32,000 bases of DNA, from the NCBI GenBank assembly GCA_031316235.1, contig JALDRA010000001.1, positions 2,490,001 through 2,522,000 of the forward strand, in the 5' to 3' direction. The DNA comes from Candidatus Scalindua sp. GTDB taxonomy: Bacteria > Planctomycetota > Brocadiia > Brocadiales > Scalinduaceae. The notes beneath the pieces were generated by a model. That model was not told where the DNA came from, did no database searches, and saw only the letters and a program-made list of their open reading frames with translations. The translations under genes and the position numbers were made by a program. Positions 4,705 through 30,636 of the stretch are shown here, piece by piece (positions within the stretch are counted from its first letter, which is position 1; every line of letters begins with the position of its first letter).

Positions 4705-4768
4705 GAGACAGCTTTTACTGCCTTAGCTTCTGGAAAACCTTAAGCGCGGCAATAAAGCTGTCTCTTTT
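4705..4768 (+). promoter_or_regulatory. Intergenic stem-loop followed by a T-run between the two pilin paralogs (possible terminator or attenuator)
   Basis: Perfect 11-bp arms gagacagcttt (4705-4715) and aaagctgtctc (4754-4764), then tttt. The loop is long (38 nt). The structure ends 8 nt before the ATG at 4776. Confidence 0.3.
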
Positions 4769-4775
4769 ATCTAAT

Positions 4776-9011: not shown

Positions 9012-9233
9012 TTAACTGGTTAAGTCATTTTCTAATTCATTAAGCAGTGTACGTGCCTGCTTAATCATTTCAAGGGCTGTTTCTTGTGAGTAACAAAATC
9101 TGTCGCGGGGGCCTTCATATAAAACGAGGCAAATACTACCTTTCAAGATTGGTTGCTTTGTGAATTTGCAGGTACGGAGTGCTTTGGCGATTTGAATCTC
9201 AGAGCGTTTGATCATCTGTTTCATTTTAGGCAT
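9012..9233 (-). CDS. Small hypothetical protein (73 aa), third gene of the nuclease-helicase cassette
   Basis: Its ATG (9233-9231) overlaps the helicase stop (9228-9226) in an 8-nt ATGCCTAA overlap, implying translational coupling. K/E-rich, no motif recognised. Confidence 0.55.
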   Translation of the reverse strand: MPKMKQMIKRSEIQIAKALRTCKFTKQPILKGSICLVLYEGPRDRFCYSQETALEMIKQARTLLNELENDLTS

Positions 9234-11061
9234 TTTTCATTTTTCCTCTTACAAGAGCCGATAGTTTGTCAACAATATCAGGAGAAGCGCTTAATGCACG
9301 TTGAAGCTGCTCTATACTTGCAGATGGCCGCCCTCCAGATTCCACACCCATGATTTTGTTTTGTTCTGCGCTAGCAAGCCTTATAAGGATTTCCGAATTG
9401 TGGTTACCGGCAAAGCAACTTAAGAGGTCCCTACCCATATGTTGTATACCGAGGCGATTAATAACCGTATCTGCGATTGAACGTGCTTCTTGCTGTAACC
9501 TTCCTTTCATAGCCTCTCTCCGCTCTTGAGGTTGGATAACCGGGTTAAATGCAGCTATCTGACCATCATTATGAGCGGCAACCAAGCGTCTACGCACAAT
9601 ATCTTCTGTAAGTCCAAATTCGCTAGGGTCGAATCCCTTTTCTCTGATTGTGTTGAACAAGTCACTAACCATTACATCATCAATTTTCTTTAGATAACCT
9701 TTGCGCTGATAGTTCTCCACAACCTCATTTAAGACGCGCATAAAAGGTCTGAGAGTAAGTCTTGGCGAGCTCGATTCATCACCCTCAATTTCAAGCTCAC
9801 CTTCCAGATATTCACGGAAGAACTCTTGATCATCCTTATCAAAGTCGGTGAAATCGCTCCACCAGCGGTCGTCATTCAAACCGATATGGGATACAAGATA
9901 TACATGGTTGGCAGGAGAATACGGCGTGTCTGGCTGAGCAAGCCGTAAAATTCGGCCAACGAATTGAATGTAAGGTGAAAGACTACGGTAAGGCCGGAAA
10001 ACTGCGGCCACGGACAACGTTGGCAGATCATAGCCTTCACCTAGGATGTTAACCTGCACGACTACGTCAATGACTCCGCTGCGCAGGCTCGCTTCTATAC
10101 GTTCTCGTTCTTCTGAAGAAAGCTGGCTATGAAGCACCTCAACGCGTAATCCATGCTCATTGTAGAGCGCAGCTACTTGTGTGGCATGTCGGATAGAACA
10201 GGCAACAGCAATTATTTGACGGGGTGTACCGAGGCTACGAACATGGTGCAGTTGTTGTACTGAGGCGTTTACGACACTGCGGTTGCACTCTTCTGACATA
10301 GCGACACCCCTGCTAAACCAGTCATTTTCACGCATCTTCATGATATCTTCGATGTTCAACGTTTTGGTTTCACCCTTAGCGGTAAAAGTGATTTCAGTAG
10401 GTTGAACAAAAAGAGCATCTATCTGAGATATGAAGCCCATAATCATAGACCGGGCATATCCAAATCTGTAAACGCGCTCACCGGATACCACCTTGCCGTC
10501 TGATCGCATAGGAGTAGCGGTGAAGGAAATAACTTTTGCTTGGTTGAAATACTCAAACAGGCGGGTCCAAGATTCAGCGACATTGTGGTGGCCCTCGTCG
10601 ACTAAAATCATATAGAAATAGTCAGTAGGAAGAGCTTCGTACCATTTATTGCGAGTTCCTGAAAACTGATGAATATTCGCAACGACAATATGTGCAGCGT
10701 CACAGTCATGAATATTGGCTCCCGTCTTAAGTTCCGAGAGATAAGGACCATACTTGGGGACAAAAACACCTCTTTTTGTGTAAAAGCAATTTGGATCACT
10801 AATATTCAACTCGCGACGTATGTTTTCACGTATCGTTAGGTTTGGGGCTATAATAAGAACGCGGCCTTTAGAAATACCAAACGGAGTTAGACCCATCAGG
10901 CCGGTTTTTCCGCAACCGACAGGAAGCTGCACGTAGCATGGTTCATCGCTACTTTGGAAGTGTTCTCGAATAGCAAAGTAGCCATCAATCTGTGGTTCAC
11001 GAAGTGAAGGGTTGTTCCAGATACCAACTTCTGTTTCGAAGAAAAATTGTTCTATATTCAT
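9226..11061 (-). CDS. SF2 helicase, ResIII/COG1061-like (DExH), with an uncharacterised ~200-aa C-terminal region
   Basis: Motif I LPVGCGKTG, motif II LVDEGHH, motif III FTATP, motif V VNILGEGYDLP, motif VI QFVGRILR. The start is placed at ATG 11061 (MNIEQFFF...), 1 nt after the stop of the upstream gene (TAA 11065-11063). The track's 21-codon extension to 11124 overlaps that gene and is hydrophobic nonsense. Confidence 0.85.
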   Translation of the reverse strand: MNIEQFFFETEVGIWNNPSLREPQIDGYFAIREHFQSSDEPCYVQLPVGCGKTGLMGLTPFGISKGRVLIIAPNLTIRENIRRELNISDPNCFYTKRGVFVPKYGPYLSELKTGANIHDCDAAHIVVANIHQFSGTRNKWYEALPTDYFYMILVDEGHHNVAESWTRLFEYFNQAKVISFTATPMRSDGKVVSGERVYRFGYARSMIMGFISQIDALFVQPTEITFTAKGETKTLNIEDIMKMRENDWFSRGVAMSEECNRSVVNASVQQLHHVRSLGTPRQIIAVACSIRHATQVAALYNEHGLRVEVLHSQLSSEERERIEASLRSGVIDVVVQVNILGEGYDLPTLSVAAVFRPYRSLSPYIQFVGRILRLAQPDTPYSPANHVYLVSHIGLNDDRWWSDFTDFDKDDQEFFREYLEGELEIEGDESSSPRLTLRPFMRVLNEVVENYQRKGYLKKIDDVMVSDLFNTIREKGFDPSEFGLTEDIVRRRLVAAHNDGQIAAFNPVIQPQERREAMKGRLQQEARSIADTVINRLGIQHMGRDLLSCFAGNHNSEILIRLASAEQNKIMGVESGGRPSASIEQLQRALSASPDIVDKLSALVRGKMKNA

Positions 11062-11062
11062 G

Positions 11063-11662
11063 TTATTCACTATTACCCTCGTTGTTATATAAACCGCGAT
11101 GAACCAAATCACGGAGGCGATCATAAGACATTACGGTTGTACCGTCTGTAGAGAGAGCTCGATATGTCTTGGCCTGTTTCGGGTCAAGAGAACCGCGCCG
11201 ACCAATAATGACATATGATGGACAAATTGCTTCGATATCTTTCAGTCCAAGCTGATCACGCGCGTAAGCAACATTATCCGTTAGCCACATCCGCCAGTCA
11301 CGAATCTGTTTAAGCGCTTCTGCGAGTTTCTTCGCGGGCAACCCTGACTTTGTTAAAACCCTTTCATTTGGACTCTCCAATTCGACCATTGTCCAGCGGA
11401 ATCCCGAAGAAGTTCGAGAAGCTAAAAGAAAGTCTGGTACAAACTCAGCTCCAAATCTGGGTCTATCAAGACACCAGTATGTACTCCCAGGTGGGGCTAG
11501 CGGTGCCAGAAGATTTGCATACGATGCAAAGAGTGTTTGCAGGGGACGCTCATCAAACGCATCACTCAAAACACGGTCGAACACGTCAACTATTGCAGAC
11601 GCTGTTTCACGGCCAACAGACGCATGACTTTCATTCCATTTTTCAAGAACTGGTTCGTTCAT
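11063..11662 (-). CDS. Minimal PD-(D/E)xK-type nuclease-fold protein resembling the Shedu SduA nuclease domain (DUF4263-like), lacking a large N-terminal domain
   Basis: 199 aa with ERPLQTLFASYANLL, RFGAEFVPDFLL, RWTMVELESPNERVL, EALKQIRDWRMWL, SYVIIGRRGSLD and TVMSYDRLRDL. The order and spacing match my recollection of the DUF4263 profile. The usual E-x-K reads E-L-E-S here. Confidence 0.6.
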   Translation of the reverse strand: MNEPVLEKWNESHASVGRETASAIVDVFDRVLSDAFDERPLQTLFASYANLLAPLAPPGSTYWCLDRPRFGAEFVPDFLLASRTSSGFRWTMVELESPNERVLTKSGLPAKKLAEALKQIRDWRMWLTDNVAYARDQLGLKDIEAICPSYVIIGRRGSLDPKQAKTYRALSTDGTTVMSYDRLRDLVHRGLYNNEGNSE

Positions 11663-11676
11663 CCATTTTATTTTCC

Positions 11677-11705
11677 ATTATGAAAGGTAGACTGTTTGTT
11701 GACAT
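11677..11705 (-). promoter_or_regulatory. Sigma70-like promoter candidate for the nuclease-helicase cassette
   Basis: On the minus strand: ATGTCA (plus 11705-11700), 17-nt spacer, CATAAT (plus 11682-11677). The -10 element ends about 15 nt upstream of ATG 11662. Confidence 0.3.
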
Positions 11706-11808
11706 ATCCATTTTCCACAATGGTTATTATCCGATTACATCCCCTTATTTGGGAAAAGTATATTACTGTATATTACGGGCTTATCTAGAAAAAACTGTAG
11801 TTCATCTA

Positions 11809-13302
11809 TCAGTTGTTTGCCTTATTTAATGTCCCTAAAATTTCCCGGAAATTATTTAGTCCGGCTTCTAGGTTCTCAATTATCTCTTCCGCCAGTTCAT
11901 CTGGTTCAGGCAGATTATCAAGGTCGGTCAGGCTTTTGTCTTTGAGCCAGAAAAGATCAAGGCTGGTTTTGTCACGAGTGGTTAATTCTCCGTATGTGAA
12001 TTTACGCCAGCGGCCTTCGGGGTTGCTCTCCTCGTTCCATGTATCTTTACGATCATGACGGTTTTCAGGATTGTAACACTTTACGAAGTCTTGCAAATCG
12101 TCATACCGCATAGGTTTCTTTTTCAGGGTATGATGAATGTTTGTGCGATAATCGTAATACCAGACTTCTTTTGTCCAAGGGTCGGGACTGGCCTCGCGGT
12201 TATCAAAGAAGATCACGTTCGCTTTCACACCTTGGGCATAAAAAACACCTGTGGGAAGTCGTAAGATCGTGTGCAGTTCTGTGTTTTGTAGCAGCTTACG
12301 GCGGATGGTTTCACCTGCGCCGCCCTCAAACAGTACATTGTCCGGTACAACGACAGCCGCTCTACCAGATATTTTCATCATAGTACGGATATGCTGAACA
12401 AAGTTAAGCTGTTTGTTTGATGTGGTTGCCCAAAAATCCTGACGGTTGTAGGTTAAATCTTCCTTGTCTTGCTCGCCTTCTTCGTTGGTAAAACTCATAG
12501 AACTTTTCTTCCCGAAAGGGGGGTTAGCTAATACATAATCAAAGCGATCTCCGCTATCAGCTACAAGCGCATCATTGGGGGAGATCATGCTTTCCCCGTC
12601 AATCTCACCGATATTGTGCAAAAACATATTCATCAGACACAGGCGACGGGTATTGGCCACAATCTCATTTCCGGTAAAGGTTTCGTGTTTCAGGAAAGCT
12701 TTCTGGTCTTTATCTAGAGAATGGTTATCCGGGTTCGTGACGAAATCATAAGCGGTCAGGAAAAAGCCTCCTGTGCCACAGGCCGGGTCCGCAATAGTTT
12801 TGCCTGGTTCGGGGCGCATACACTCCACCATGGCTTTAATAAGTGCTCTTGGGGTAAAATATTGGCCTGCACCTGACTTGGTGTCCTCGGCATTCTTTTC
12901 TAGTAGTCCTTCATAAATATCGCCTTTGGTATCGGCTCCCATCGTTACCCACTCTGTGCCATTAATCATATCTATGAGACGAAACAGCTTGGCAGGGTCT
13001 TGAATTTTGTTTTGTGACTTGGTGAATATCTGGCCTAGCATTCCTTTCTTTGTTGCCAATTCGCGTAACAAATTCACGTAATGAACTTCCAATTCTGCAC
13101 CCTTTTTGGATTTAAGGCTCTGCCAATTATATTCGCCAGGAATGCCAACATCGCGGCTATAAGGCGGCCTGGAATACTCATCTGCCATTTTCAGGAAGAT
13201 GAGATAGGTGAGTTGTTCCAGATAGTCACCATAGCCCACACCATCATCCCGCAGGGTTGTACAAAAACTCCATACTTTAGATACTATTGCTGCTGTGTTC
13301 AT
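11809..13302 (-). CDS. hsdM: Type I restriction-modification system, N6-adenine DNA methyltransferase subunit
   Basis: 497 aa. HsdM_N-like N-terminus, AdoMet motif I ADPACGTGGFF, catalytic motif IV NPPFG. ATGA overlap with the hsdS stop. Confidence 0.93.
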   Translation of the reverse strand: MNTAAIVSKVWSFCTTLRDDGVGYGDYLEQLTYLIFLKMADEYSRPPYSRDVGIPGEYNWQSLKSKKGAELEVHYVNLLRELATKKGMLGQIFTKSQNKIQDPAKLFRLIDMINGTEWVTMGADTKGDIYEGLLEKNAEDTKSGAGQYFTPRALIKAMVECMRPEPGKTIADPACGTGGFFLTAYDFVTNPDNHSLDKDQKAFLKHETFTGNEIVANTRRLCLMNMFLHNIGEIDGESMISPNDALVADSGDRFDYVLANPPFGKKSSMSFTNEEGEQDKEDLTYNRQDFWATTSNKQLNFVQHIRTMMKISGRAAVVVPDNVLFEGGAGETIRRKLLQNTELHTILRLPTGVFYAQGVKANVIFFDNREASPDPWTKEVWYYDYRTNIHHTLKKKPMRYDDLQDFVKCYNPENRHDRKDTWNEESNPEGRWRKFTYGELTTRDKTSLDLFWLKDKSLTDLDNLPEPDELAEEIIENLEAGLNNFREILGTLNKANN

Positions 13303-14609
13303 GCGGCTCTGCCTTTCTTAGATTTTTTATTATCTTCTTTTTCAGCCTTAATGCGTTCAAGCAGAACAGAAGCAGGCTCGTCATTCGGATCTTGTTTAAC
13401 CAGCTTTCCTGAGAAGGCTTGTTTCAGGATGGACTGACGAAGAGATTCTGATTTTTGAAGCTGAAAATCTACATCAACTTCAAGTCTATCTATATAAGAA
13501 AACTGATTATTAAGGTATGCAACTGTTTCTTCTTGAGTTTGAGGGTTGGGTATCCATAGCCGCAGCGGCATTAAATCCTTTTGATAGATTGCACATACAT
13601 TGGTTGTTGCCTTCTTCTGGCCACGCAAAGCAGCTCTCATAAGAGGGTTTATTAATTGATAACAAACATAATAAGAGCTTACACCGTCAACGAATCTCAT
13701 CCTCATAATATTATTATTGAAGAGTAACGGTTCAGAAACTTGTTTTACAACACCAGTTTTTCCAACAAGTTCATAGCTATTCCTCGTATTAAGTAGAACA
13801 TCTCCATTTCTAAGACGATATTTTTGGATTTCATCTTCTGTAGCTGCAACATAGACAACATCCTTGGAATCAACGCTGCCATTCATATCAATATTATTCA
13901 TTTTGATATACTTCACACCCAAATCATCGGAGTTTTGTTCTTTTGCAGAACGAACAATGCCTATCAAAGATTCTTTAATAATATCGGCTAATGCCACTTG
14001 CTCATTTTGCGTGGAACAACCTGTAAGTTTACCTTCGAAGGCGTGTTTGAGAACGGCTTGACGGTAGACCTTGAGTTGCTCACGGGCGGTTTTGAGGCTT
14101 TCTATCCCCTTGTCCAGTTCAGAAAACAGCTCTTCAATCTTGCTCACAATCCGCTTTTGTTCGTTGAGTGGGGCAATAGGAAATTCGTAATTCCATAGTA
14201 AGTCGGGATCAACGTGTGGTGTGCCGCTCCCCTTAGCTCTTGTATTTATTTGCTGGTATTTTGATTGTAAAAAGTAATATGCGTAAGAATTTTCAATCTC
14301 AGGAAAATTAATTCTTACCAATGTGCTGCCTAAAGCACCATGCATGCCTTTACCAACTAAACCGGATCGTGATCCATCCCAGACCATAAGAAAATCAGAT
14401 TCATAACAAAGGCGGCAGTCCTCACCATCAGTCCAACTTTTAACAACTCCTTGTTCAAAAGCTTCAATATCGACATATGGGTATTTAAACTGACTATCTG
14501 ATTGCTCTTTTTGTCTTTTTGGTTTTTTCCCTTTCTCGTTTTCTACAAATTTTCCGAGTGGTACGGTTTTCCATGATTTTGGGTATATATTGCTTGCTCT
14601 TTCCATCAC
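13299..14609 (-). CDS. hsdS: Type I restriction-modification system, specificity subunit
   Basis: 436 aa. Two variable target-recognition halves are separated by the conserved helical spacer PLNEQKRIVSKIEELFSELDKGIESLKTAREQLKVYRQAVLKHAF, with a second conserved helix near the C-terminus (SESLRQSILKQAFSGKLV). The GTG at 14609 or ATG at 14606 overlaps the hsdR TGA. Confidence 0.9.
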   Translation of the reverse strand: MMERASNIYPKSWKTVPLGKFVENEKGKKPKRQKEQSDSQFKYPYVDIEAFEQGVVKSWTDGEDCRLCYESDFLMVWDGSRSGLVGKGMHGALGSTLVRINFPEIENSYAYYFLQSKYQQINTRAKGSGTPHVDPDLLWNYEFPIAPLNEQKRIVSKIEELFSELDKGIESLKTAREQLKVYRQAVLKHAFEGKLTGCSTQNEQVALADIIKESLIGIVRSAKEQNSDDLGVKYIKMNNIDMNGSVDSKDVVYVAATEDEIQKYRLRNGDVLLNTRNSYELVGKTGVVKQVSEPLLFNNNIMRMRFVDGVSSYYVCYQLINPLMRAALRGQKKATTNVCAIYQKDLMPLRLWIPNPQTQEETVAYLNNQFSYIDRLEVDVDFQLQKSESLRQSILKQAFSGKLVKQDPNDEPASVLLERIKAEKEDNKKSKKGRAA

Positions 14610-17377
14610 GCAGCCAACGCCTCATTTAATTCGTTAATCAAGCTATCCATATCATCCCCGAACAGCTTATACATTTTGCCCATGCCGCCATGGGTGTCGA
14701 AGGGATTTGATTCCAGATCATCACGTTCAATATGGAATGAGCTGATGATATGATCACGGATCATGTGCAGCCATTCCATCTGTTCCTTGTTGAATTTCTC
14801 ACCGCCACCACTGTGGTGTTTCATGATCCAGTCCTGGAAATTTTTCCGTACTGTCTCACTATGGCGGGACACGGTTTTATCTATGCCGCAGGCTCGGCGT
14901 ATGAGGGAGATCAGGGCGGTTAGCTCACTCACCGGGTTTTCACCTTTATAATCGTCAAGATGGGCGTAGGCACGCCATACGCGCAACGGGGCAAGCCTTG
15001 GTTTATCGTCTCTGATTTTATCCATGAGCTGTTTAATCATGGCATAAGTTATGTTTTGTCGTCTGTGGGGCTCACTATAGAAGATCGTCAGGGCTTCGAT
15101 CTCATCGCGGTTTTCTTGTAAGTACGTTTCAAAGTCCTGTACCATTGTTTTCGCGTTTTCTTCTGCATCACCATCCCATTCGGCAAGGATCACATTATCA
15201 AGATTGTCATGATCTATGATTTGTTCTTTGTCCCGGCGGATTGAATCGAGTAACTCTATCAGCTCGCCGTTAAAGACATTCGCTGCATTTTTGACCAGCT
15301 CGTTTTGTGCCTTCACTCGTGTTTCTTCTTTTGGATCCTGGCCTTCGGAGATTTGCTCAATATCTCTGGCCTTGGTTTCTACATTATCCGGGTCAATGGC
15401 AGAAAGCAGGTCGCCGACAATATCGGACAACTCCATGCCGCCCGCTTTTTCCTTAATTCGTTCAAGGTCTTTGTTATCGAGCTGTTTATTCAGGCGTGAG
15501 AGGCGTCCAGCGAGGGAGCTGACCGTATCCTCATCACTTGCCCCCATCATTACGCCCATGGCCAGGTCTTTAAGGGGCACAGTGGGTTTCGTAATAAGCG
15601 GCTGGCTGGCTGTTTTCAGGGACTTGGTAACACCGACAGCATCCACTATCACATAGTGGGTCTTGGCGCTCTTTGCTGAAGGTGTAACCTTTTTCAAGTC
15701 GTCATAGCCCAGCGTCCGTGTGCCTCGGCCTTTCATCTGCTCAAGGTAATTACGGCTTTTCACATCACGCATAAACATGAGACATTCCAGCGGTTTTACA
15801 TCCGTGCCTGTGGCAACCATATCCACTGTCACGGCAATGCGCGGATTATAATCATTGCGGAATTGCGCTAGAATCGATTTCGGGTTCTCTTTGGTTTTGT
15901 ATGTGATTTTCTTACAAAACTCATTTCCTTCGCCGAATTCTTCCCGCACAGTCTGAATAATATCATCAGCATGGCTATCCGTTTTAGCAAAGATCAGGGT
16001 TTTGGGTAATTCCTTGCGTCCGGGAAATATATCCGGTAGCTTATCTTTGAATGTACGAATGATAGTACGGATTTGATCAGGGTTTACAATATCACGATCC
16101 AGTTGTGTGGCAGTGTAGTTCTCATCTTCGTCTTGACGTTCCCATCGCTTCTTACGGGTGAGTTTTTCCCTGTGCTCTACTTGCTGACCGGCTTTAATTG
16201 TACCACCACCTTTGGTGCGCTCTGTCTCAATTACATAGATTTCATTGCCAACATTCACGCCATCGGCTACGGCCTTTTCGTGATCATATTCACTGACTAT
16301 ATTCTTTTTGAAAAATCCATAAGTGCGGTTATCCGGCGTAGCTGTCAGGCCAACAAGATATGAGTCAAAATATTCCAACACCTGCCTCCAAAGGTTATAA
16401 ATAGAGCGGTGGCACTCATCAATTACGATAAAATCAAAAAACTCAGGTGGTACTTTTTCATTATAGCCGACAGGAACAGGCTCTTTCGGCTTTGTCATTT
16501 GTTCTGCCGGGTTTAACTCTTCCAGTGCTTCATCCAATTCTTCGTCTTTAAGAATGGAATACATGCGTTGTATGGTGCTTATGCACACTTGAGCATCTTT
16601 TGGCACATATGAAGAAGATAATCGCCTGGCAGTGTAAAGCTCTGTAAATTTGCGATTGTCATCGTTAGGAACAAATTTCATGAATTCCTGTTCGGCTTGC
16701 TCGCCGAGGTTCCTTGTGTCTACTAAAAACAGAATGCGCTTGGCATCAGCATGTTTTAAAAGACGATAAATCGAGGTTATGGCCGTAAATGTTTTACCTG
16801 AGCCTGTGGCCATTTGTATTAGAGCGCGAGGCTTATCGTATTTGAAGGATTGTTCCAGATTTTCAATTGCTATAATCTGGCATTTACGTAGCCCTTCATG
16901 GTCGAGGGGCGGCATAACCAGCAAGTGGCTACGCAGGGATTTTTCCTTGCAATACCATTCTTGTAATGTTTCAGGTCTATGGAAGGTGAAGACTTCCCGT
17001 GATCGTGGTTTGGGATCACGCCCATTTGTAAAGCGGGTAATAATGCCGGTGCTTTCATAAACGAAGGGTAACAGCTTACTGTTATTTACCCATTTCAGTT
17101 TTGCCTTGGCATAGTCACCGGATTGAGTTTCGACGGTAGTGATATTTTGCGCTTCCTCTTCTCGCTTGGCCTCGATAACACCCACAGCCTTATTTTCCAC
17201 GAATAAAACATAATCAGCAGGACCAACATCGGTCTGATATTCACGAACCGCAATACCCAGCCCAGCATTAAAATCTATCTTATCTTTGTTCTGAACATGC
17301 CAGCCTGCCTGGGCCAACATAGAATCAATGTTGGCTCTGGCTTTTTGTTCGGGAGTCTGATTAATGTCTGATGTCAT
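14606..17377 (-). CDS. hsdR: Type I restriction-modification system, restriction (helicase-nuclease) subunit, with an EcoEI-R-type C-terminal domain
   Basis: 923 aa. HSDR_N-like N-terminus (ADYVLF...GVIEAK, PD-(D/E)xK). SF2 motifs MATGSGKT, VIDECHRS, GLTATP, QMKGRGTR. C-terminal FNKEQMEWLHMIRDHI...FDTHGGMGKMYKLFG. Confidence 0.93.
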   Translation of the reverse strand: MTSDINQTPEQKARANIDSMLAQAGWHVQNKDKIDFNAGLGIAVREYQTDVGPADYVLFVENKAVGVIEAKREEEAQNITTVETQSGDYAKAKLKWVNNSKLLPFVYESTGIITRFTNGRDPKPRSREVFTFHRPETLQEWYCKEKSLRSHLLVMPPLDHEGLRKCQIIAIENLEQSFKYDKPRALIQMATGSGKTFTAITSIYRLLKHADAKRILFLVDTRNLGEQAEQEFMKFVPNDDNRKFTELYTARRLSSSYVPKDAQVCISTIQRMYSILKDEELDEALEELNPAEQMTKPKEPVPVGYNEKVPPEFFDFIVIDECHRSIYNLWRQVLEYFDSYLVGLTATPDNRTYGFFKKNIVSEYDHEKAVADGVNVGNEIYVIETERTKGGGTIKAGQQVEHREKLTRKKRWERQDEDENYTATQLDRDIVNPDQIRTIIRTFKDKLPDIFPGRKELPKTLIFAKTDSHADDIIQTVREEFGEGNEFCKKITYKTKENPKSILAQFRNDYNPRIAVTVDMVATGTDVKPLECLMFMRDVKSRNYLEQMKGRGTRTLGYDDLKKVTPSAKSAKTHYVIVDAVGVTKSLKTASQPLITKPTVPLKDLAMGVMMGASDEDTVSSLAGRLSRLNKQLDNKDLERIKEKAGGMELSDIVGDLLSAIDPDNVETKARDIEQISEGQDPKEETRVKAQNELVKNAANVFNGELIELLDSIRRDKEQIIDHDNLDNVILAEWDGDAEENAKTMVQDFETYLQENRDEIEALTIFYSEPHRRQNITYAMIKQLMDKIRDDKPRLAPLRVWRAYAHLDDYKGENPVSELTALISLIRRACGIDKTVSRHSETVRKNFQDWIMKHHSGGGEKFNKEQMEWLHMIRDHIISSFHIERDDLESNPFDTHGGMGKMYKLFGDDMDSLINELNEALAA

Positions 17378-17394: not shown

Positions 17395-19843
17395 ATATCA
17401 CTACAGCGACACTTTTTTTCGCAGCTTCCGCTGCAATTTTTTGAATTCCTCTATTTTTGTTTTTCTATGAGAACGATAAGCACTATAATTCCTTTTCTGG
17501 TGGTACCTGATAAGTTCAATTACGTATTTTTTATCAAGTGGAATAACCGGCAGAACGGCCTCCAACAGCATACGAGCTTGGGGTAAAGTCAGAGCCGGTG
17601 TTTTTTTTTAATACTCCGCGTATTCTAAGCAAAAATAATTGTGCCAAAAAAACAAACGTCATATGCCTATGCCAGGCGGGCCAGGAACGATGTTCATAAT
17701 CTGCCATGCCTAATTCGCTTTTGCCTTCTTGAAATGATTGCTCGACAGGCCAGCGTAATACACATACACGTATCATTTCTTCAAGTGCCGTCTCTGCCGG
17801 AGCATTGCTGAGGCAGTACTTTATTTCATGTGTTTTAGGATCTTTTCTTAAAAACAGCCATCTTTCATTCTCCGCTGTACTGTCATCGCCTGCAAACACC
17901 CTGGTTCGAGCGACAAATCCATAAATTGGCCCTTTTGCTCCTTCAGCAAGTTGGGCCAGCTTCCACTTTACATTTCCGTCCTGTGCTATATCGGATACTT
18001 TTCTTTCAACTCTCTTCCGGCAAGCTTCACCATCTTGCGTGCTCACTAACACTTTCCGATTCTTTGCTATATCAGCTAGATAAAAAACCTGTGGAGGAAG
18101 ATTTTCTAAAAAATCAGGGCTATTGCCAAATATACTATCACACGTTATCCAACGAAATGGGAACAGCCCACCCGTACTCAATTCAGCAATCATCTCAACG
18201 GCAAGTTCCGGTTTCTTCCTGAATACCAAATTTTTAGGCACTTTGCATCTTTCACGTCTCTCTTTATACTCAGGGTCAAACCACTTTTCAGGCATATACA
18301 GCCGGCGGTCTATCAATCCATACCCCTTCGTACTCGTATATGCCACGTACACTCCAGACTGACAATTTTCTATTTTACCAAGACGGCCACAATATTGACG
18401 AGCGACTCCCACCGATTCCTTTCCTTTTTTCACCACTTCTCTACTATCAAGACTGAGTACTCCATCAGCTTCGGACAATAGTTTTGAGAGTTCCTCTTTG
18501 TGCCGTGAAGCGATAAATTCTCCATCCCACTTGTACTCTCCCATGAACCGTTGCAAGCTTCGTACTGTATCTTTACCTCGGAGTCGAAGTGCTATTGGCT
18601 CTATCGATTTACGATCAAGCTTACTTAATAAACCCTGCAAATAGCACAAGCTCAAATCTTTCTGCTCTTTCCGTCTGAATCCCTCCTCAAACAATGCGTG
18701 ATACTTCTCCAACTCTGTTGCAAGCTTTCCGATATCGCTTGCACTCAATTCAACTCCGGGTTCTACTTCAGGACTCCAGTCCGGGGGACGTACTATCATA
18801 CTGCTTCTCCTTTCCAATGGCAGATTGCTGTAAGGTCTGTTTGAAAGGAGATACTTTCGGGTAAGTAATGGTTCTGTTTTGTCTTGTTTAATCTTTTGTC
18901 TGCCTTGTGGATCTAATACATAAAAATAAACCTCCTTGCTGTTTCCATGGTATATAAATCCTTTCTGCTTTTTACGATAGCCCTTCGTGTTGCCAATTTT
19001 TACCCAGTTAGCTGCCTGATAACACGTTCCTGAAAATTTTGATGGATCGATAAATGTTTCCAGAAATAATAATCGGGTGCCATACTTCTCTACCCAATCT
19101 TTCTGCAATTGTCGGACAACTCGTGATAAAATATGTGATGCAATATTTTTTACCTCTACCCATGGCATGATCAGAAAGCGACTATTGTTTAGTACTTTGT
19201 CTAAAGCCTTTCTGCGCTCCTGCACATTCCAGCCTATGATAATGTCCCTGCAATATAACCGCTCTACTGCGGATTGCCAGCCCAGTGCCGCCACTAATCG
19301 ATCAGAGCTGTATATTAAATACCTTATGTTCTGCCCTACTAATACTCGATAGCCCAAATAGTGATATCTTCTATTGACGTACTTCCATATGCGGCCACTT
19401 TCTTTATCCGTTACGCTCTTTATCTTTAACGGAAGAAACACCTTTATGTTTCCCTTGATTTCTGTGGTATCCAACCTCACATGTTCTAACGGACGTTCGT
19501 TTTTGCATGATGGTGCCCTTTTGGAAGCAGGCAGTTGGATAAGCCCTCTCTCGGACAACGATTGCAGTATACTACGGCATGCACGATCTTTTAGATGTCC
19601 GTTAGCTTGTTTCCATTGCCAATGTTCTGACAACTTGATAGAGATATATACCCGGCCTCGGTTGCCATAGTGCTCTATCAAACCACGTACAACGGCTATA
19701 TCCGCTTCGCTTATTTCCCGGCCTCGAATGACAAGCCTGCGGCCTTCAGGTGGCTTACCCATAAAGTCCTCCTGTACTCTATGGGTGCGAGTTTAACCGA
19801 TTCGCTCAAAAGGCGCAAGAAAAAAATGTCGCTGTAGTGATAT
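17395..19843 (-). mobile_element. Intact-looking insertion sequence (~2.45 kb) with terminal inverted repeats and a single long transposase ORF
   Basis: The left end atatcactacagcgacac (17395-) and the reverse complement of the right end atatcactacagcgacat (-19843) give 17/17 identical nt, followed by a T-run. The outer palindromic ATAT could equally be a 4-bp target-site duplication (17395-17398 and 19840-19843). Confidence 0.85.
17534..19762 (-). CDS. Fusion transposase: N-terminal DUF4338 (Druantia DruA-like) domain + C-terminal IS701-family DDE transposase domain
   Basis: 742 aa. N-terminal ~300 aa: RRYHYLGYRVLVGQNIRYLIY, AALGWQSAVERLYCRDIIIGW, LNNSRFLIMPWVEVKNIASHILS, LLFLETFIDPSKFSGTCYQAANWVKIGNTKGY (DUF4338 pattern). 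C-terminal: LSLDSREVVKKGKESVGVARQYCGRLGKIENCQSGV, WITCDSIFGNSPDF, RWPVEQSFQEGKSELGMADYEHRSWPAWHRHM (IS701-type D, D, E). Confidence 0.8.
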   Translation of the reverse strand: MGKPPEGRRLVIRGREISEADIAVVRGLIEHYGNRGRVYISIKLSEHWQWKQANGHLKDRACRSILQSLSERGLIQLPASKRAPSCKNERPLEHVRLDTTEIKGNIKVFLPLKIKSVTDKESGRIWKYVNRRYHYLGYRVLVGQNIRYLIYSSDRLVAALGWQSAVERLYCRDIIIGWNVQERRKALDKVLNNSRFLIMPWVEVKNIASHILSRVVRQLQKDWVEKYGTRLLFLETFIDPSKFSGTCYQAANWVKIGNTKGYRKKQKGFIYHGNSKEVYFYVLDPQGRQKIKQDKTEPLLTRKYLLSNRPYSNLPLERRSSMIVRPPDWSPEVEPGVELSASDIGKLATELEKYHALFEEGFRRKEQKDLSLCYLQGLLSKLDRKSIEPIALRLRGKDTVRSLQRFMGEYKWDGEFIASRHKEELSKLLSEADGVLSLDSREVVKKGKESVGVARQYCGRLGKIENCQSGVYVAYTSTKGYGLIDRRLYMPEKWFDPEYKERRERCKVPKNLVFRKKPELAVEMIAELSTGGLFPFRWITCDSIFGNSPDFLENLPPQVFYLADIAKNRKVLVSTQDGEACRKRVERKVSDIAQDGNVKWKLAQLAEGAKGPIYGFVARTRVFAGDDSTAENERWLFLRKDPKTHEIKYCLSNAPAETALEEMIRVCVLRWPVEQSFQEGKSELGMADYEHRSWPAWHRHMTFVFLAQLFLLRIRGVLKKNTGSDFTPSSYAVGGRSAGYST

Positions 19844-20268
19844 AAGGTTAGATGCTATTAAATCAGAATAAGCTCCCTACTCCGGCAAGTCTGATATTAA
19901 GGCTCTAAGACATCATATGGAAAATAACCAAATCCCTGTTATGCCTTTTAAGACCATTCTATATGTTATTGCTTATTTTTAATGTATGTTCTTATTGATC
20001 TTTCAAAAAGTTTTGTTCGCATGCGATCAGGCAGGTTCGAGCAAAAGGATTTAAGGTCCTGATCAACGCGCACGCTTGTGTTGGCCTTTTCCCCTGTAAC
20101 AGAAATGTTTGTATGTGCTTTCATAATAATTATTCTAAGCGTAATGAATTATATTGATATGTATGTAATGGAAACATATTAAAACCAATAAAATTCACAA
20201 AAGCAATGAAAAATATAGGGGCCAAGGCCACTCTTGAATACATAGCGGAAATAAGGTACGCTCTTGTC

Positions 20269-20501
20269 ATGGCACGTCCACTAAGAATAGAATATCCAGG
20301 TGCGTGGTATCATGCAATGAACAGAGGATTAAATCAGTACTCCATATTTTTGGATAATTCCGATTATGAACTTTTTAATGTCTTCATTTTCTCAAACTGT
20401 TTGATGCCAAACATTACCATTTACTATTATACACACCGGAAGGCAATCTTGGACGTTTTATGAGGCATTTAAATGGTGTATATAAGCAAAGTCATAAATA
20501 G
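20269..20501 (+). pseudogene. Degraded Y1 (IS200-like/REP-associated tyrosine transposase-like, COG1943-type) gene
   Basis: MARPLRIEYPGAWYHAMNRG...IFLDNSDYELF...CLMPN, then a frameshift. Restoring one missing nt at about 20412/20413 gives PN(H)YHLLLYTPEGNLGRFMRHLNGVYKQSHK*, the HUH-containing core of this family. It is also truncated after about 90 codons. Confidence 0.7.
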
Positions 20502-24979: not shown

Positions 24980-27900
24980 ATGAAGATCCGAAAGACTAGC
25001 ACTTTAAATTTTCAACTATACATTGTTTCAGCAATTTTATTATCTTTATTAACATTGTTGATAGTAATCACGATTAAGAGATCATTTGAAGGAAGAAAAC
25101 TTGCAGAAGAATATGCGATAAAAAATGGAATCAACGGTCATCTTAATGCGGCCGCAGCATGGCAGGCAGTTGAACGCGGGTATGGTGCTACAATTCTCGG
25201 AAGCGGTAAAGGAGATTCTTCTCATCTCTTCCCTCATTTTCTTGAAGTGGGACAGAGAGGGGAAGCAGAAGTCTTGCAGGCTGAAAAACAGATTAAAAGA
25301 CTGTTACGTGTTGCGGGCAGCAAAACATTACAGAGACAATTTGATACGTGGCATAATGGATATGAAGATCTTGCCGGTGCTCGTCCCAAAATTGCTGCGA
25401 ACGACATTTCAGAAGAAGAGTGGTTTTATACTGCAACACTTACCATTAATAATGGATCTCATCTGAGAAATAGTGTCTTCGCTCCGCAGAAAAAAGAGGA
25501 GAAAATACTCTATCTGAATAATGTTATGCGTCTTAACATTACGAGGCTGTGCGAATATGCGGGGCGGGAACGAGCTCTTGTAGGTAATATGATTGCATCG
25601 GGAAAACCTTTTTCCCGGGAGGTCAGTAATGAAATTGAACACTGCCGTTCCATCGTGGAGGAATCACTTAACCAGTTACTCATTTTAAAAGATATTCAAT
25701 TAACATCAACCCGGATGAAACAAGCTATAGAAGATTTTGAGGAAGAGTTCCTGCAGTCATTTGATATTCTGATGGAAGAGGTATTTATTTCAAGTAAAGA
25801 ACAGGAAGAGGAGATAAGAACTTCATCTGTTGAAATTACAAAAAGGAAAGCGATTTTTAGAGAGTATTTATCGGGAATATACAATGATTTACTGAATATG
25901 AGTAACCAGGAAAACATAAAGACATTAGCCAGGGCCTTAAATGGTCAGGAAGATATTGCTCTGTCTGAACATCTGCATGTGGTGGGAAATATGTTTGAAA
26001 CATTTTCCCAGGTAAAAAAGACATTGTGCCGGATTCAGTATCTGGATACATCAGGGTATGAGCGTGTCCGTGTAGATTTTGATGGTAACCTTACGGAAAT
26101 AATTAGTGATATACACCTTCAAGACAGAAGTGACAGAAGTTATTTTACAAAAGCAATACATCTTCTGCCAGGTGAGATATATACTTCTCCCCTTGAGCTG
26201 AATATGGAATATGGCAAAATCGAAATGCCCTATAAACCGGTTATCCGCTTAGCAACACCCGTTTTTGCTGACGAAAAGAGTTCCGGGATTCTTGTCTTTA
26301 ACGTACTGGCAAATACACCCCTTTTCCTGCATAAAATTGCAGAAAATGAACGACAGGGAGACTACCTGTTAGCAAACCAGGATGGTTTTTATCTCAATCA
26401 TCCATATGAGTTGAAAGAGTGGGGAATGATGGCGCTTCTCAACAAGTCGCATCATAATGTACGAATGGACTATCCTGATGTTGCAGAACAGATTCTTTCT
26501 GGAAAAGAGGGAAGTGTCCCTTTGGCTTCAGGTAAAATGCTTGTTTATGAACCGTTTTTTCACAAGATAGATGATAATGCTGATAGTTTCTGGGTCCTTA
26601 TTAAAGAGGTTAAAGCGGTTGAGTATCCGGTCGATGCATCCACCTGGTTCGAGAGAGCAACACAAGCAATAAATAGGGGATTAGCCGTTTCAAATATTGC
26701 CGGTGATGAGGCCGACGCTGTTATAGGAGAGATGTCTTCTGCCGCAAAAAGGAATGTAATAATGAGTTTCCTGATTTTCGTTGCAGCTGTTTCGATTTTT
26801 ATTTTTTATATTCGATGGGTAAGGAATAGAATTCTCAAGCCTGTCGAGAGATTGACTGGGATTACGCAGAGAATATATGAAGGAGATTACACGTTTAAAT
26901 TTGAAGTTAATACAAAAGATGAAATCGGTGTCCTTGCAGATAATTTTAACAAAATGGCAGAAAGGCTCACAAATGAGATCACTGAGCGCAGACGTGGAGA
27001 GGAATTGATCCGAAAGCTGTCCAGCGCAGTCGAACAGAATCCTGCAACAGTGATAATTACCGATGCCAGGGGTACTATTGAATATGTGAACAGAAAGTTT
27101 ACACAATTAACAGGTTACACTCTGGATGAAGTCATAGAAAAAAACCCTCGCATTTTAAGCTCGGGCAAGACAGCACCGGCAGACTACAGGAATTTGTGGC
27201 AGACTATTGTGTCTGGCAATGAATGGCATGGAAAGTTCTGCAATAAAAAAAAGAATGGAGAACTCTATTGGGAATCTGCATCAATTTCACCTGTCAAAGA
27301 TACAGAAGGGATCATTACCCATTTTGTAGCGGTTAAGGAAGACATTACCGAACGAATGAAAGCTGAAAAACGTCTGAGAGCTCAGCATATTGTGACACAA
27401 TTGCTGGCGGAATCTGCTACGATAAAAGAGAAATTTCCCAAAATTATACAGGCAGTATGTACGGCACTGGAGTGGGATCTTGGAGATATATGGATATTTT
27501 CTCAGCTTGACAGGGTGCTGCACTGCTCAGAAATCTGGCATAGTCCATCCATTGATGTATCAGGATTCATTGCAAGGAGCAGGGGAATAACCCTTGCTCC
27601 AGGCGTTGGATTGCCTGGGCGCATTTTTTCCAGTGCTAAAGCAGCGTGGATATCAGACGTTGGAGAGGATGAAAATTTTCCACGGTCATCAGCTGCATTA
27701 AAAGAAGGGCTGCATGGGGCCTTTGGTTTTCCCATTTTGAGCGGTAGAGAGGTACTGGGGGCAATAAGCTTCTATAGCCGTGAGATAAGATCACCGGACA
27801 GGGACACGTTTGATATGATGTCTTCTATTGGTAATCAGATAGGTCTCTTCATTAAGCGCAAACAGGCTGAAGCGCTACTGAAAGAATCAGAGAAGAGGCA

Positions 27901-29902
27901 TCGTAGGCTTATCCAAACAGCACAAGATGCAATTGTCAGCACAGACAAAAATGGATTAATTAGTGTTTGGAATCAATCAGCAGAAAAGTTATTTGGTTAT
28001 TCCAATCATGAAATCATTGGGCAGCCTATAACAACCATTATTCCTGAAACATATAATAAGCAGTGCCAGAATGGTAAGGGGCAGATTATAAGGGGAGGTA
28101 TGTCTAAAAATTCTGGTGAACCGGTAGAAGTTTTTGCGAGGACAAAGAAGGGAATTGAAATACCGATAGCACTGTCCTTATCCATTCTACAGGAGGGAAA
28201 AGGTCAACACATTCTTACGGCTATCATCAGAGATATGACTGAAAGGAAGAAATGGGAAAATGATGTCCATAAATTATCTTGTGCCATTGAACAAAGCCCG
28301 GTTTCTGTTGTTATTACGGATACCAAAGGTAATATCGAGTATGTTAACAAGAAATTCACACAAATAACCGGTTATACTTCCGAAGAAACCAAAGGAAAGA
28401 ACCCAAGAATACTAAAAACAGATGAAAAGAACTCAGAGGAATACAAAGAGCTCTGGGAAACCATTACATCAGGCTATGAATGGAAAGGAGAATTTTCCAA
28501 TAAAAACAAAGAAGGAAAAATCTATTGGGAAACGGCATCTATTTCTCCGATCAAAAACGATAATGGTGATATCACCCATTTTATTGCGGTAAAAGAAGAC
28601 ATATCCACCCAAAAGCAAATGGAAGCAGCTCGCGAACGAGCACACTTACGCCTGGAGAAAATAAACGAAGTGCAACAATTCCTGCTCGCTCCCGGCAGAC
28701 TGGAGACAAAGCTCAAGAAAATCACTGATAGTGTGGTTGAGATGTTTGATGCCGATTTTTGTCGTATTTGGGTAATTCGACCTGGAGATCGTTGCAAATC
28801 AGGGTGTATTCATGCTGCGGTGTCTGATGGTTCACATGTCTGCCGGGATCGGGATCGATGTCTGCACCTCTTGTCCAGTTCCGGGCGTTACACTCATATC
28901 GATGGAGATGTCCATCGTCGTGTGCCTTTTGGTTGTTACAAGATCGGGTTAGTGGCTGCTAAAAAGGAACGAAAGTTTCTGATAAGCGACGTAACGCATG
29001 ACTCACGCATCCATAATAATGAGTGGGCTTCTCAATTGGGATTAGTATCCTTTGCAGGTTATCAACTGTGCCCTACAGGAGATGAAGCCCTCGGTGTTAT
29101 GGCCCTCTTCTCAAAAAATACCATTTCAGGGGATGATGATGAATTGCTACAGGTGCTGAGTCACTCGACTTCCCAGGCAATTCAGGCATCGATAATGGGA
29201 AATTTGATTCAAGACTCAAAGAATAAACTGGAATTTTTACTTTTTTCTATCCCGTATGTAATAATTGAATTGACAAGTGATAATAAGATTAATAGATGGA
29301 ATGAGTTTGCGGAGAAAATCTTTGGAATCGCTGCATCCGATGCCATAGGAAAGACCGTTAGTGAATTAAACCTACAGTTGGATATGGACGTTATTAGTAA
29401 AAAAATTGCATTATGTAGGGATAATGAGAGCGCAGTGTGGATAGACGACAGCAGATACAAACGTACCGATGGAAGTGAGGGCCTGCTTACTGTTACGATA
29501 AATCCAATCAAAAATGAGGACTGTAAACAAACAGGCCAAATTATATTAATGCAGGATATTACAGAACATAAAAAAATTGAGAACCAATTAGTTCAATCAC
29601 AAAAGCTGGAATCGATAGGGCAATTGGCTGCCGGTGTTGCCCATGAAATAAACACACCAACACAGTTCATATCAGACAATACATTCTTCATTCAGGATGC
29701 GTTTAACAAGATATTTACTATCTTGAAGAAGTATTCACACTTACTTGAGATGAATAAGGCCGGATCAGTAACTCCGGAAATGATAAGAGAGATGGATGCT
29801 GCTGAGAAAGGTGTCAAATTGGACTACCTTACTGAAGAAATCCCTATAGCGATTAGTGAAACGCAGGAGGGGATAAAGCGTGTAACGGAAATAGTTAAAT
29901 AA
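24980..29902 (+). CDS. Giant multi-domain sensor histidine kinase, N-terminal 1640 aa up to the end of the DHp/HisKA domain, terminated by an in-frame TAA
   Basis: TM1 (res ~14-32). Extracytoplasmic helical NIT-like region (WQAVERGYGATILGSG; EYAGRERALVGNMIASG). Cache-like region (LQDRSDRSYFTKA..GEIYTSPLELNMEYG..PVIRLATPVF). TM2 (26755-26820) and HAMP. Then PAS1 (~27010-27360), GAF1, PAS2, PAS3 (~28270-28620), Cys-rich GAF2, PAS4. H-box QLAAGVAHEINTP. Confidence 0.85.
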   Translation: MKIRKTSTLNFQLYIVSAILLSLLTLLIVITIKRSFEGRKLAEEYAIKNGINGHLNAAAAWQAVERGYGATILGSGKGDSSHLFPHFLEVGQRGEAEVLQAEKQIKRLLRVAGSKTLQRQFDTWHNGYEDLAGARPKIAANDISEEEWFYTATLTINNGSHLRNSVFAPQKKEEKILYLNNVMRLNITRLCEYAGRERALVGNMIASGKPFSREVSNEIEHCRSIVEESLNQLLILKDIQLTSTRMKQAIEDFEEEFLQSFDILMEEVFISSKEQEEEIRTSSVEITKRKAIFREYLSGIYNDLLNMSNQENIKTLARALNGQEDIALSEHLHVVGNMFETFSQVKKTLCRIQYLDTSGYERVRVDFDGNLTEIISDIHLQDRSDRSYFTKAIHLLPGEIYTSPLELNMEYGKIEMPYKPVIRLATPVFADEKSSGILVFNVLANTPLFLHKIAENERQGDYLLANQDGFYLNHPYELKEWGMMALLNKSHHNVRMDYPDVAEQILSGKEGSVPLASGKMLVYEPFFHKIDDNADSFWVLIKEVKAVEYPVDASTWFERATQAINRGLAVSNIAGDEADAVIGEMSSAAKRNVIMSFLIFVAAVSIFIFYIRWVRNRILKPVERLTGITQRIYEGDYTFKFEVNTKDEIGVLADNFNKMAERLTNEITERRRGEELIRKLSSAVEQNPATVIITDARGTIEYVNRKFTQLTGYTLDEVIEKNPRILSSGKTAPADYRNLWQTIVSGNEWHGKFCNKKKNGELYWESASISPVKDTEGIITHFVAVKEDITERMKAEKRLRAQHIVTQLLAESATIKEKFPKIIQAVCTALEWDLGDIWIFSQLDRVLHCSEIWHSPSIDVSGFIARSRGITLAPGVGLPGRIFSSAKAAWISDVGEDENFPRSSAALKEGLHGAFGFPILSGREVLGAISFYSREIRSPDRDTFDMMSSIGNQIGLFIKRKQAEALLKESEKRHRRLIQTAQDAIVSTDKNGLISVWNQSAEKLFGYSNHEIIGQPITTIIPETYNKQCQNGKGQIIRGGMSKNSGEPVEVFARTKKGIEIPIALSLSILQEGKGQHILTAIIRDMTERKKWENDVHKLSCAIEQSPVSVVITDTKGNIEYVNKKFTQITGYTSEETKGKNPRILKTDEKNSEEYKELWETITSGYEWKGEFSNKNKEGKIYWETASISPIKNDNGDITHFIAVKEDISTQKQMEAARERAHLRLEKINEVQQFLLAPGRLETKLKKITDSVVEMFDADFCRIWVIRPGDRCKSGCIHAAVSDGSHVCRDRDRCLHLLSSSGRYTHIDGDVHRRVPFGCYKIGLVAAKKERKFLISDVTHDSRIHNNEWASQLGLVSFAGYQLCPTGDEALGVMALFSKNTISGDDDELLQVLSHSTSQAIQASIMGNLIQDSKNKLEFLLFSIPYVIIELTSDNKINRWNEFAEKIFGIAASDAIGKTVSELNLQLDMDVISKKIALCRDNESAVWIDDSRYKRTDGSEGLLTVTINPIKNEDCKQTGQIILMQDITEHKKIENQLVQSQKLESIGQLAAGVAHEINTPTQFISDNTFFIQDAFNKIFTILKKYSHLLEMNKAGSVTPEMIREMDAAEKGVKLDYLTEEIPIAISETQEGIKRVTEIVK

Positions 29903-30424
29903 ATGAAGACATTCTCGCATCCTAATGTCAATGAAAAGGTGTATGTAGATATCAACATGATGGTTAAGAGTACGATTACCATCTCAAGACACGAGTGGAA
30001 GTATGTAGCAGATGTCGAGACAAACCTTGATTCTGACCTGCCACCTGTCCCCTGTTACCCAGGTGAGTTTAATCAGGTAATTCTCAACTTGATTGTCAAC
30101 GCTGCCCATGCCATCGGAGAAGTTCCTGGTAGTGGAAGCGAGGATAAGGGGAAAATTACTATAAGTACTCATTATAATGATGATAAAATTGAGATCTGCA
30201 TATGCGATACAGGCGCAGGCATTCCTGAAAATATAAGATCCAGGTTATTTGAACCATTCTTTACAACTAAAGAAGCAGGGAAAGGAACCGGTCAGGGGTT
30301 GTCTATTGCACATGCTGTTATAGTAAAAAAACATAATGGAACAATTACCTTTGATTCAGAAATAGGGAAGGGAACAAAATTTATTATTCGCTTACCTCTT
30401 TCAGATCAAACGGCACTTAACTAA
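29903..30424 (+). CDS. HATPase_c (catalytic ATP-binding) domain of the same histidine kinase, separated from it by the in-frame stop
   Basis: 173 aa in the same frame as 24980-29902; its ATG immediately follows the TAA. N-box QVILNLIVNAAHA, G1 DTGAGIP, F-box FEPFFTTK, G2 GTGQGLSIA. The N-terminal MKTFSHP continues the ...RVTEIVK(x)MKxFSHP linker typical of intact kinases. Confidence 0.85.
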   Translation: MKTFSHPNVNEKVYVDINMMVKSTITISRHEWKYVADVETNLDSDLPPVPCYPGEFNQVILNLIVNAAHAIGEVPGSGSEDKGKITISTHYNDDKIEICICDTGAGIPENIRSRLFEPFFTTKEAGKGTGQGLSIAHAVIVKKHNGTITFDSEIGKGTKFIIRLPLSDQTALN

Positions 30425-30636
30425 ATGTATCAAGAGCACACGACATTTATCCTAAATACGAATGGTCAAAATTTAAGGGTTTTTGTAGAAATAATGCTGA
30501 AGCAAACCTGATATTACACTTGAACTTGTGTCAATAATTTGATTCAGGATCAGCGGCAGGCAAGGCCTCTGAACAAAGGCGATAATTTATTTGCGGAGCA
30601 AACCAGGATATTAGTGACTGAAAGGACGTAGGTTAT

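Follow-up and report, generated by a model that had tools for sequence, protein, structure and literature searches.

A DruA-like module and an out-of-frame C-terminal tail in an IS701-family insertion sequence of Candidatus Scalindua

Introduction

What does a domain named after a defence system do in the transposase of a mobile element? The question is raised by a locus within a 32,000-nt stretch of Candidatus Scalindua DNA (hereafter the window, to whose positions all coordinates refer), where an insertion sequence (IS) encodes a protein of 742 amino acids (aa) that joins a module of the DUF4338/DruA family to a DDE transposase of the IS701 type. We know of no activity that has been assigned to DUF4338/DruA, a component of defence systems. 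In our view the main value of the finding lies in a lead to the biochemistry of this family and in an overlooked feature of IS701 transposase genes, a conserved C-terminal tail that lies out of frame.

Boundaries and family of the element

The sequence ATATCACTACAGCGACA occurs exactly twice in the window, in inverted orientation (17395-17411 on the forward and 19827-19843 on the reverse strand), and shuffled versions of the window held 0.05 matches on average and two matches in none of 100 cases, so that the perfect inverted repeats of 17 bp seen in an initial annotation of this DNA are confirmed. With one indel allowed, the terminal inverted repeat extends to 24 nt at 96%. The register of the ends was set by relatives. 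One related element is present in six identical copies of 2299 bp in a single closed Thermodesulfovibrionales chromosome, starting with TACTACAGCG and ending with its complement, and the copies are flanked by the 4-bp direct repeats CTAT, TTAG, TTAA, TTAG, TTAA and CTAA. A second multi-copy relative has TTAA on both flanks, and for CTAA and ATAA one flank each was read. Because these relatives carry 4-bp NTAN duplications (both flanks were read in seven insertions), ATAT, previously noted as a possible target duplication, is taken as the 4-bp duplication of the window element, and the element proper spans 17399-19839, a length of 2441 bp with the ends CACTACAGCGACA.

As evidenced by the NCBIfam model NF033540 ('IS701 family transposase'), which matches aa 351-712 over model positions 1-360 of 363 with 328 bits (cut-off 150), the C-terminal half of the protein is indeed the IS701-like DDE transposase that had been proposed. 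Pfam DDE_5 covers aa 358-573 (E 2e-44), and in the annotation of the 4.15-Mb Scalindua contig that contains the window the protein also appears as 'IS701 family transposase'. Since the match to NF033540 extends over nearly the entire model, the IS701 part is a complete transposase core, in front of which the DruA part was added rather than replacing its N-terminus. The putative catalytic residues are D439, D542 and E674, the last of which belongs to an R-x3-E-x6-K motif without tyrosine (VCVLRWPVEQSFQEGK) whose R670, E674 and K681 are all invariant.

Published hallmarks of IS701 are YACT near the tip, a duplication of exactly 4 bp and an R-x3-E-x6-K motif that usually lacks the tyrosine of YREK, in elements of 1400-1550 bp with a single ORF (open reading frame) of about 400-450 aa and no frameshift (ISfinder; De Palmenaer et al. 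2008). The window element shares the DDE domain type, the tyrosine-less C1 motif, the 4-bp duplication and YACT repeats (CACTACAGCG here, TACTACAGCG in the relatives) with classical members such as ISRso17, IS1452 and ISRm31, but departs from them in size and gene organization, as its 2441 bp hold an ORF of 742 aa and, in the +1 frame, a tail. DruA-fused elements measure 2.3-2.45 kb, against 1.4-1.55 kb in classical IS701, owing to an N-terminal module of about 340 aa; as stated in the initial annotation, classical IS701 elements are without this module. Both the anatomy of the element and its assignment to IS701 can be stated with high confidence. The best explanation as a whole, which we hold with only moderate confidence, takes 17399-19839 for a complete IS701-family insertion sequence, probably mobile, of a large and widespread subgroup that is not described in the literature searched. 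A scan of the element for promoters and terminators gave counts not above those of shuffles.

A genuine fusion

A DUF4338 gene and a neighbouring IS701 transposase gene might have been merged by a frameshift or by an assembly error in a metagenome-assembled genome, and in favour of such an artefact the module does occur as a separate ORF beside other transposases. This explanation, which the initial annotation had named as a way in which its claim could fail, was checked and is refuted. Proteins of 720-800 aa with both DruA and DDE_5 form more than 100 independent clusters at 44-87% identity (drawn from NCBI, JGI, ENA and Logan assemblies) that are conserved along the whole length including the linker, and relatives are encoded in 432 stretches of a one-genome-per-species collection, from Planctomycetota, Verrucomicrobiota, Acidobacteriota, Nitrospirota, Desulfobacterota, Chloroflexota, Bacillota, NC10 and other phyla. 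The linker is read through in 80 genomic loci that were retrieved, among them the six identical copies in the closed chromosome, and we regard the chance of an artefact as negligible. Because more than 100 diverged clusters keep both domains and the linker, the DruA-IS701 fusion is genuine and, to judge from this conservation, under selection. A count of copies in the genome, derived from the members of the protein clusters, put their number in the source Scalindua contig at six or more, fragments included; among them are one more intact copy of 742 aa and several that are truncated. In plasmid records the module was found in only two places, and examples from cultured organisms are scarce.

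The module resembles the DNA-modifying enzyme Mom

Pfam DruA (PF14236, formerly DUF4338), the family to which DruA of type I Druantia belongs, matches aa 97-262 of the window protein with E 5.8e-33 and 114.7 bits (cut-off 27), in agreement with the earlier placement of DUF4338 in the N-terminal part; the module as a whole spans aa ~10-292. Structure prediction, a check that had been suggested for this part, yielded an AlphaFold2 (AF2) model of aa 1-340 with a pLDDT (predicted local distance difference test) score of 84.7, consisting of a domain of one hairpin plus three helices, a disordered linker and an alpha/beta domain. Going by its layout, the first of these might be called winged-helix-like. 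It is kept in one subclade, and the other subclade is without it but has the GNAT core.

When the model was compared with the PDB by Foldseek, the first match was Mom of phage Mu (8bv8, E 5e-8), followed by many GNAT acyltransferases, and an independent paper has also called DUF4338 a GNAT domain. Mom was found by this fold comparison only: sequence searches of PDB chains with the N-terminal 340 aa and with the family profile returned nothing meaningful. A profile of the module built from 150 diverse sequences aligned to a profile of the Mom family in hhalign with a probability of 73% and E 3e-5 over 152 columns. In this alignment W48 of Mom corresponds to W126 of the window protein, H58 and Y59 to H134 and Y135, R111 to R195, S124 to S209, D149 to D239 and Y159 to Y248, and the aligned residues are invariant or more than 90% conserved, the 150 diverse sequences included. 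Six of the seven catalytic residues of Mom (H58, Y59, R111, S124, D149, R151 and Y159), whose importance has been demonstrated by published mutagenesis, thus align with invariant residues. By our own reading of the alignment, the loop that binds the pyrophosphate of coenzyme A in ordinary GNATs seems to be replaced by the N-x-x-S of Mom.

Mom itself is a tRNA-dependent adenine N6-carbamoylmethyl transferase that uses Gly-tRNA to modify adenine in DNA, binds DNA, and protects Mu DNA from restriction. The window module shares with it the GNAT fold, the N-x-x-S loop and the residues aligned above, but differs in several respects: similarity in sequence is marginal, the helix-turn-helix-like insertion of Mom is not evident, and the module brings an N-terminal helical domain of its own and sits in a transposase rather than in a phage late gene.

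The initial annotation had proposed a purely DNA-binding or end-recognition role instead, and a non-catalytic domain of this kind could account for the small helical domain at the N-terminus, for the constant link to transposases and for the DNA binding of Mom. It fits poorly, however, with an IS701 part that matches its model in full length and so already contains an end-binding region of its own, with the subclade that has dispensed with the helical domain while keeping the GNAT core, with the module working as a separate protein alongside ISKra4 and IS66 transposases, and with the invariance of Mom's catalytic residues across hundreds of diverged sequences. We consider this role rather unlikely. 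As every testable catalytic residue of Mom is kept, an enzymatic role appears to be indicated, and the module may be an active Mom-type acyl- or aminoacyl-transferase acting on nucleic acid that is held by the transposase; it might mark the ends of the element or its target. This Mom-like role on nucleic acid is advanced tentatively, and several points weigh against it. R151 of Mom falls one position away from the conserved R/K242, the window protein reaches 25.0 bits with Pfam Mom (PF25680), below the cut-off of 27.1 that some relatives do pass (P0144, for instance, with 29.6 bits), and the substrate, the donor and any DNA contact of the module are points that we infer. With Mom as the nearest solved relative of DUF4338/DruA and the catalytic residues kept, acyl or aminoacyl transfer to DNA nevertheless becomes a hypothesis that can be tested.

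A possible portable accessory of six transposase families

A phmmer search with aa 1-340 against the full library gave 7095 representative clusters when E was limited to 0.001, and 528 when it was limited to 1e-30. Domain architectures were counted in the best 150 matches, of which 84 are stand-alone proteins (<=330 aa) and 66 are longer. Among the longer ones DDE_5 of IS701 is present in 23, the ISAs1-type pair DDE_Tnp_1_assoc and DDE_Tnp_1 in 8-10, Tn5-type domains in four, the DDE domain of IS66 in three, here with the module at the C-terminal end, and an IS630-type DDE_3 with a helix-turn-helix in one or two. One further protein of the 66 (P0180, 594 aa) combines the module with the catalytic domain of an adenylate/guanylate cyclase and has no transposase domain.

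All stand-alone module proteins of about 298 aa that were examined lie inside mobile elements. At each readable locus their gene either adjoins a gene for a protein of 460-468 aa or shares up to 7 nt with it, and the one such partner that was scored is an ISKra4-family transposase (NF033572, 250 bits). With the DruA-like ORF first and the ISKra4 ORF second, these form a 2.37-kb element with GGGAGCATTAC terminal repeats that is found in differing genomic contexts. The elements carry the same helical-plus-GNAT module as the window element, with 35-42% identity over aa 10-292 and likewise within terminal repeats, but as a separate, translationally overlapping ORF and with a transposase of an unrelated family. 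A further locus (L106) has an IS66 transposase gene and, after it, a DruA-like gene of 293 aa as an ORF of its own.

The module is thus fused or adjacent to transposases of six families, IS701, ISAs1, IS66, Tn5-like, IS630 and ISKra4. The survey of DUF4338 beside or fused to DDE transposases that the initial annotation had called for hence shows that the evolutionary link it suspected between DruA and transposons is real and much broader than a single fusion; in the literature searched, an association of DUF4338 with transposases is not mentioned. Because the module goes with six families, fused at either end or encoded separately, its role would seem to be that of a portable accessory and not that of a structural element belonging to one transposase, and such a function would in turn explain its carriage by unrelated families. 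Most of the diversity of DUF4338/DruA sits inside insertion sequences, and an IS of 2.4 kb is a simpler system for study than a five-gene defence operon.

A conserved transposase tail in another frame

The zero frame of the window gene ends in ...RIRGVLKKNTGSDF...GYST and a stop codon, and the +1 frame from the same run of nine A reads KKTPALTLPQARMLLEAVLPVIPLDKKYVIELIRYHQKRNYSAYRSHRKTKIEEFKKLQRKLRKKVSL up to its own stop. The latter is a conserved tail of about 68 aa, basic and helical, whose stop codon TAG (17401-17403) falls inside the terminal inverted repeat. The same tail is in frame in four homologues (P0016, P0071, P0074 and P0113). A run of A7-A9 is found at the junction in 72 of 81 loci, and in the 65 loci that have both landmarks it is present in all but two, both with A5. 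In these 65 the tail lies in the +1 frame in 50, in the -1 frame in 12 and in frame in three. The 114 clusters of full-length proteins show a comparable division, with a long non-homologous extension in 83, a stop within 8 aa in 27 and the tail in frame in four, where the long extensions probably correspond to the +1 and the early stops to the -1 arrangement. Altogether the tail is out of frame in about 95% of the relatives, where a run of neutral length would leave about one third in frame.

Should this copy then be regarded as a decaying pseudogene, an element that died when the gain of one base in the A run cut off the C-terminus of its transposase? The conserved tail is out of frame here and in frame in a few relatives, as this explanation would have it, but an out-of-frame tail is the norm of the family, the tail is still conserved as protein, and the 742 codons are free of other stops or indels. 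Moreover, the six identical copies with their intact duplications all have A8 and the tail in +1, and the near-identical intact copies in the Scalindua genome have A9 in common. For the latter reasons the out-of-frame arrangement is best understood as the normal and apparently functional state of the family, and decay of this copy is very unlikely. The ORF described at the outset as apparently intact is therefore intact as an ORF of 742 aa, but the conserved end of the protein lies beyond it and is presumably reached by recoding.

Alternatively, the A run might act as a phase switch at the level of DNA, with slippage in replication turning copies ON or OFF and no slippage in transcription or translation. 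Runs of A7, A8 and A9 and all three relations of the frames do occur among relatives. Copies in frame, however, make up 3-5%, far fewer than free switching would give, and sets of multiple copies are uniformly OFF, even if an ON copy could in principle mobilise OFF copies in trans. We hold such a switch to be unlikely. Recoding at the junction, with two conserved frames joined at a slippery run and the out-of-frame state kept among active copies, is by comparison likely, judged from the pattern of conservation.

If recoding takes place, a full-length transposase of 786 aa would arise solely through slippage, by RNA polymerase or by the ribosome, on the A run, and the tail-less 742-aa protein would be the majority product, which would keep transposition low. 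The Tn5 transposase needs its C-terminal helix for synapsis, and a shorter, inhibitory protein is made from the same element. By analogy, the tail-less product is plausibly inactive or inhibitory. The comparison is of interest as Tn5 (IS50) provides the best match of solved structure to the transposase part of the window family, found with an in-frame homologue at E 1e-10 over some 490 columns, but Tn5 belongs to another family, and the short product here would lose the C-terminus rather than the N-terminus, through the choice of frame rather than an internal start.

IS1 and IS3 use A-rich heptamers for -1 frameshifting, and slippage of transcription on A/T runs has reportedly been described in IS elements. 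As in these cases, a homopolymer run joins two transposase frames and would limit the full-length product. In contrast to them, the junction is found past the catalytic domain, at the very C-terminus, the commonest arrangement requires +1 (or -2), and there is no conserved stimulatory structure: neither RNA structure (RNAalifold; mean z-scores -0.14 and -0.45) nor a Shine-Dalgarno-like stimulator was detected beside the A run.

Several of these results weigh against recoding as described. Since the A run has no conserved stimulator beside it, programmed frameshifting of high efficiency is not indicated, and for the same reason we infer that the homopolymer as such causes slippage, either of RNA polymerase or of the ribosome as it reads lysine codons. 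The binomial tails calculated against neutral run length (4e-15 and 2e-8) overstate the significance, because clusters that are related do not count as independent. In the AF2 model of an in-frame homologue the tail forms three helices of low confidence (pLDDT ~55), which neither supports nor refutes a role in dimerisation as in Tn5. Finally, the tail-less protein could itself be the working transposase.

Tail frames in classical IS701 elements

We examined ten classical IS701 elements from plasmid records, unnamed copies included, using motif searches and frame reading, on which the following statements are based. The tail motif is in the -1 frame in IS1452 (behind A7), ISRm31, a Leptolyngbya copy (behind A5G6) and a Streptomyces copy, in the +1 frame in an Azospirillum copy (behind a G run), ISRso17 (behind A8) and ISBj6, and in frame in ISDds6. 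A Calothrix copy, in which the motif has no match, seems to continue in frame, and the position of the tail in an Isosphaeraceae copy is ambiguous. A recognisable tail is thus out of frame in seven of eight cases, and like the window element these members have a conserved tail in another frame behind a homopolymer run, where the public annotation runs on into non-conserved sequence. A hidden Markov model of the tails from the DruA-fused group matched the classical tails weakly, with E 0.002 for Azospirillum and >0.1 for the others.

IS4-related families have been published as being without frameshifts, and recoding in IS701 is not reported in the literature searched. The 'no frameshift' criterion of IS701 now looks doubtful, and the frames suggest recoding throughout the family. 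This would mean that IS701 transposases, annotated everywhere as unbroken ORFs, are misannotated at their C-termini and regulated by recoding. A still wider picture can be drawn, in which DUF4338/DruA proteins would be Mom-type base-modifying enzymes, insertion sequences of at least six families would use these to put chemical marks on their ends or targets and would thereby encode an epigenetic control of their own transposition, type I Druantia would have taken over this enzyme to supply the 'modification' component that it lacks, and the whole IS701 family would depend on C-terminal recoding; taken jointly, these propositions are speculative and more likely to fail than to hold by a good measure.

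Relation to Druantia and the neighbouring defence island

The window locus is not a Druantia system. Genes for DruB, DruC, DruD and the helicase DruE are absent from the window, and the PADLOC model of DruA yields a marginal match (14.6 bits, E 0.003), which makes the module no more than a distant relative of Druantia DruA in the form modelled there, and one that sits inside a mobile element. Could the module still be cargo for defence or anti-defence, either a Druantia-type component or a Mom-like anti-restriction enzyme that protects the DNA bearing the element? Druantia DruA gave the Pfam family its name, Mom protects its phage in just this manner, and the present copy adjoins an island with type I restriction-modification and Shedu-like genes. 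The missing partners and the marginal PADLOC score speak against this, a domain that is part of a scarce transposase is ill suited to modifying an entire replicon, and related elements occur in many unrelated genomic contexts. We therefore judge a cargo function to be quite improbable.

The defence island occupies 9226-17377 on the reverse strand, with the element at its edge. The element has the orientation of hsdR and lies 17-21 bp upstream of the start codon of that gene; it may either have cut the operon off from its promoter or drive it by read-through. The coordinates of all these features are compiled in Table 1.

Table 1. Features of the insertion sequence and of the adjoining defence island in the Candidatus Scalindua window.
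Feature	Position	Strand	Basis
ATAT target-site duplication, transposase 3' side	17395-17398		identical 4 bp at 19840-19843; 4-bp NTAN duplications of relatives
Terminal inverted repeat, transposase 3' end, CACTACAGCGACA followed by C and a T run	17399-17418		starts YACT like the published IS701 consensus
Conserved transposase C-terminal tail, +1 frame, KKTPALTLPQARMLLEAVLP...YHQKRNYSAYRSHRK...KKVSL, 68 aa plus stop	17401-17607	-	peptide kept in 62 related loci
A9 slippery run (T9 on the forward strand), junction of DDE frame and tail frame	17601-17609	-	sequence; relatives
Zero-frame ORF, 742 aa: DruA-like module, linker, IS701 DDE core and non-conserved 22-aa C-terminal extension	17534-19762	-	ORF list, profile searches
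IS701-type DDE transposase domain, aa 351-712	17627-18712	-	NF033540; invariant columns
Mom-like GNAT core of the DruA/DUF4338 module, aa 97-292	18887-19474	-	Pfam DruA, AF2, Foldseek, profile-profile match
Small N-terminal domain, beta-hairpin and three helices, aa 10-71	19550-19735	-	AF2 secondary structure, pLDDT 85-96
Terminal inverted repeat, transposase 5' end	19820-19839		repeat searches
ATAT target-site duplication, transposase 5' side	19840-19843		same 4 bp at 17395-17398; relatives
ResIII/Helicase_C protein	9226-11124	-	defence island
Shedu SduA_C-like protein	11063-11662	-	defence island
hsdM, hsdS and hsdR, type I restriction-modification	after the Shedu-like gene, to 17377	-	defence island

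Other observations in the window

A short ORF at 20206-20463 on the forward strand contains MARPLRIEYPGAWYHAMNRG, which resembles the start of REP-associated or IS200-type tyrosine transposases. The ORF has no Pfam match, a sequence like it is joined to the present element in truncated form elsewhere in the same genome (P0515), and it is probably a remnant. Further neighbours in the window include a glycoside phosphorylase and sensor kinases. Two adjoining genes at 3953-5468 on the forward strand combine an N-terminal methylation motif with DUF1559, and 24980-31776, also on the forward strand, encodes a 1640-aa sensor with multiple PAS, GAF and HAMP domains, followed by a HATPase_c protein and a response regulator with an HD domain, an ordinary signalling locus that is unrelated to the element.

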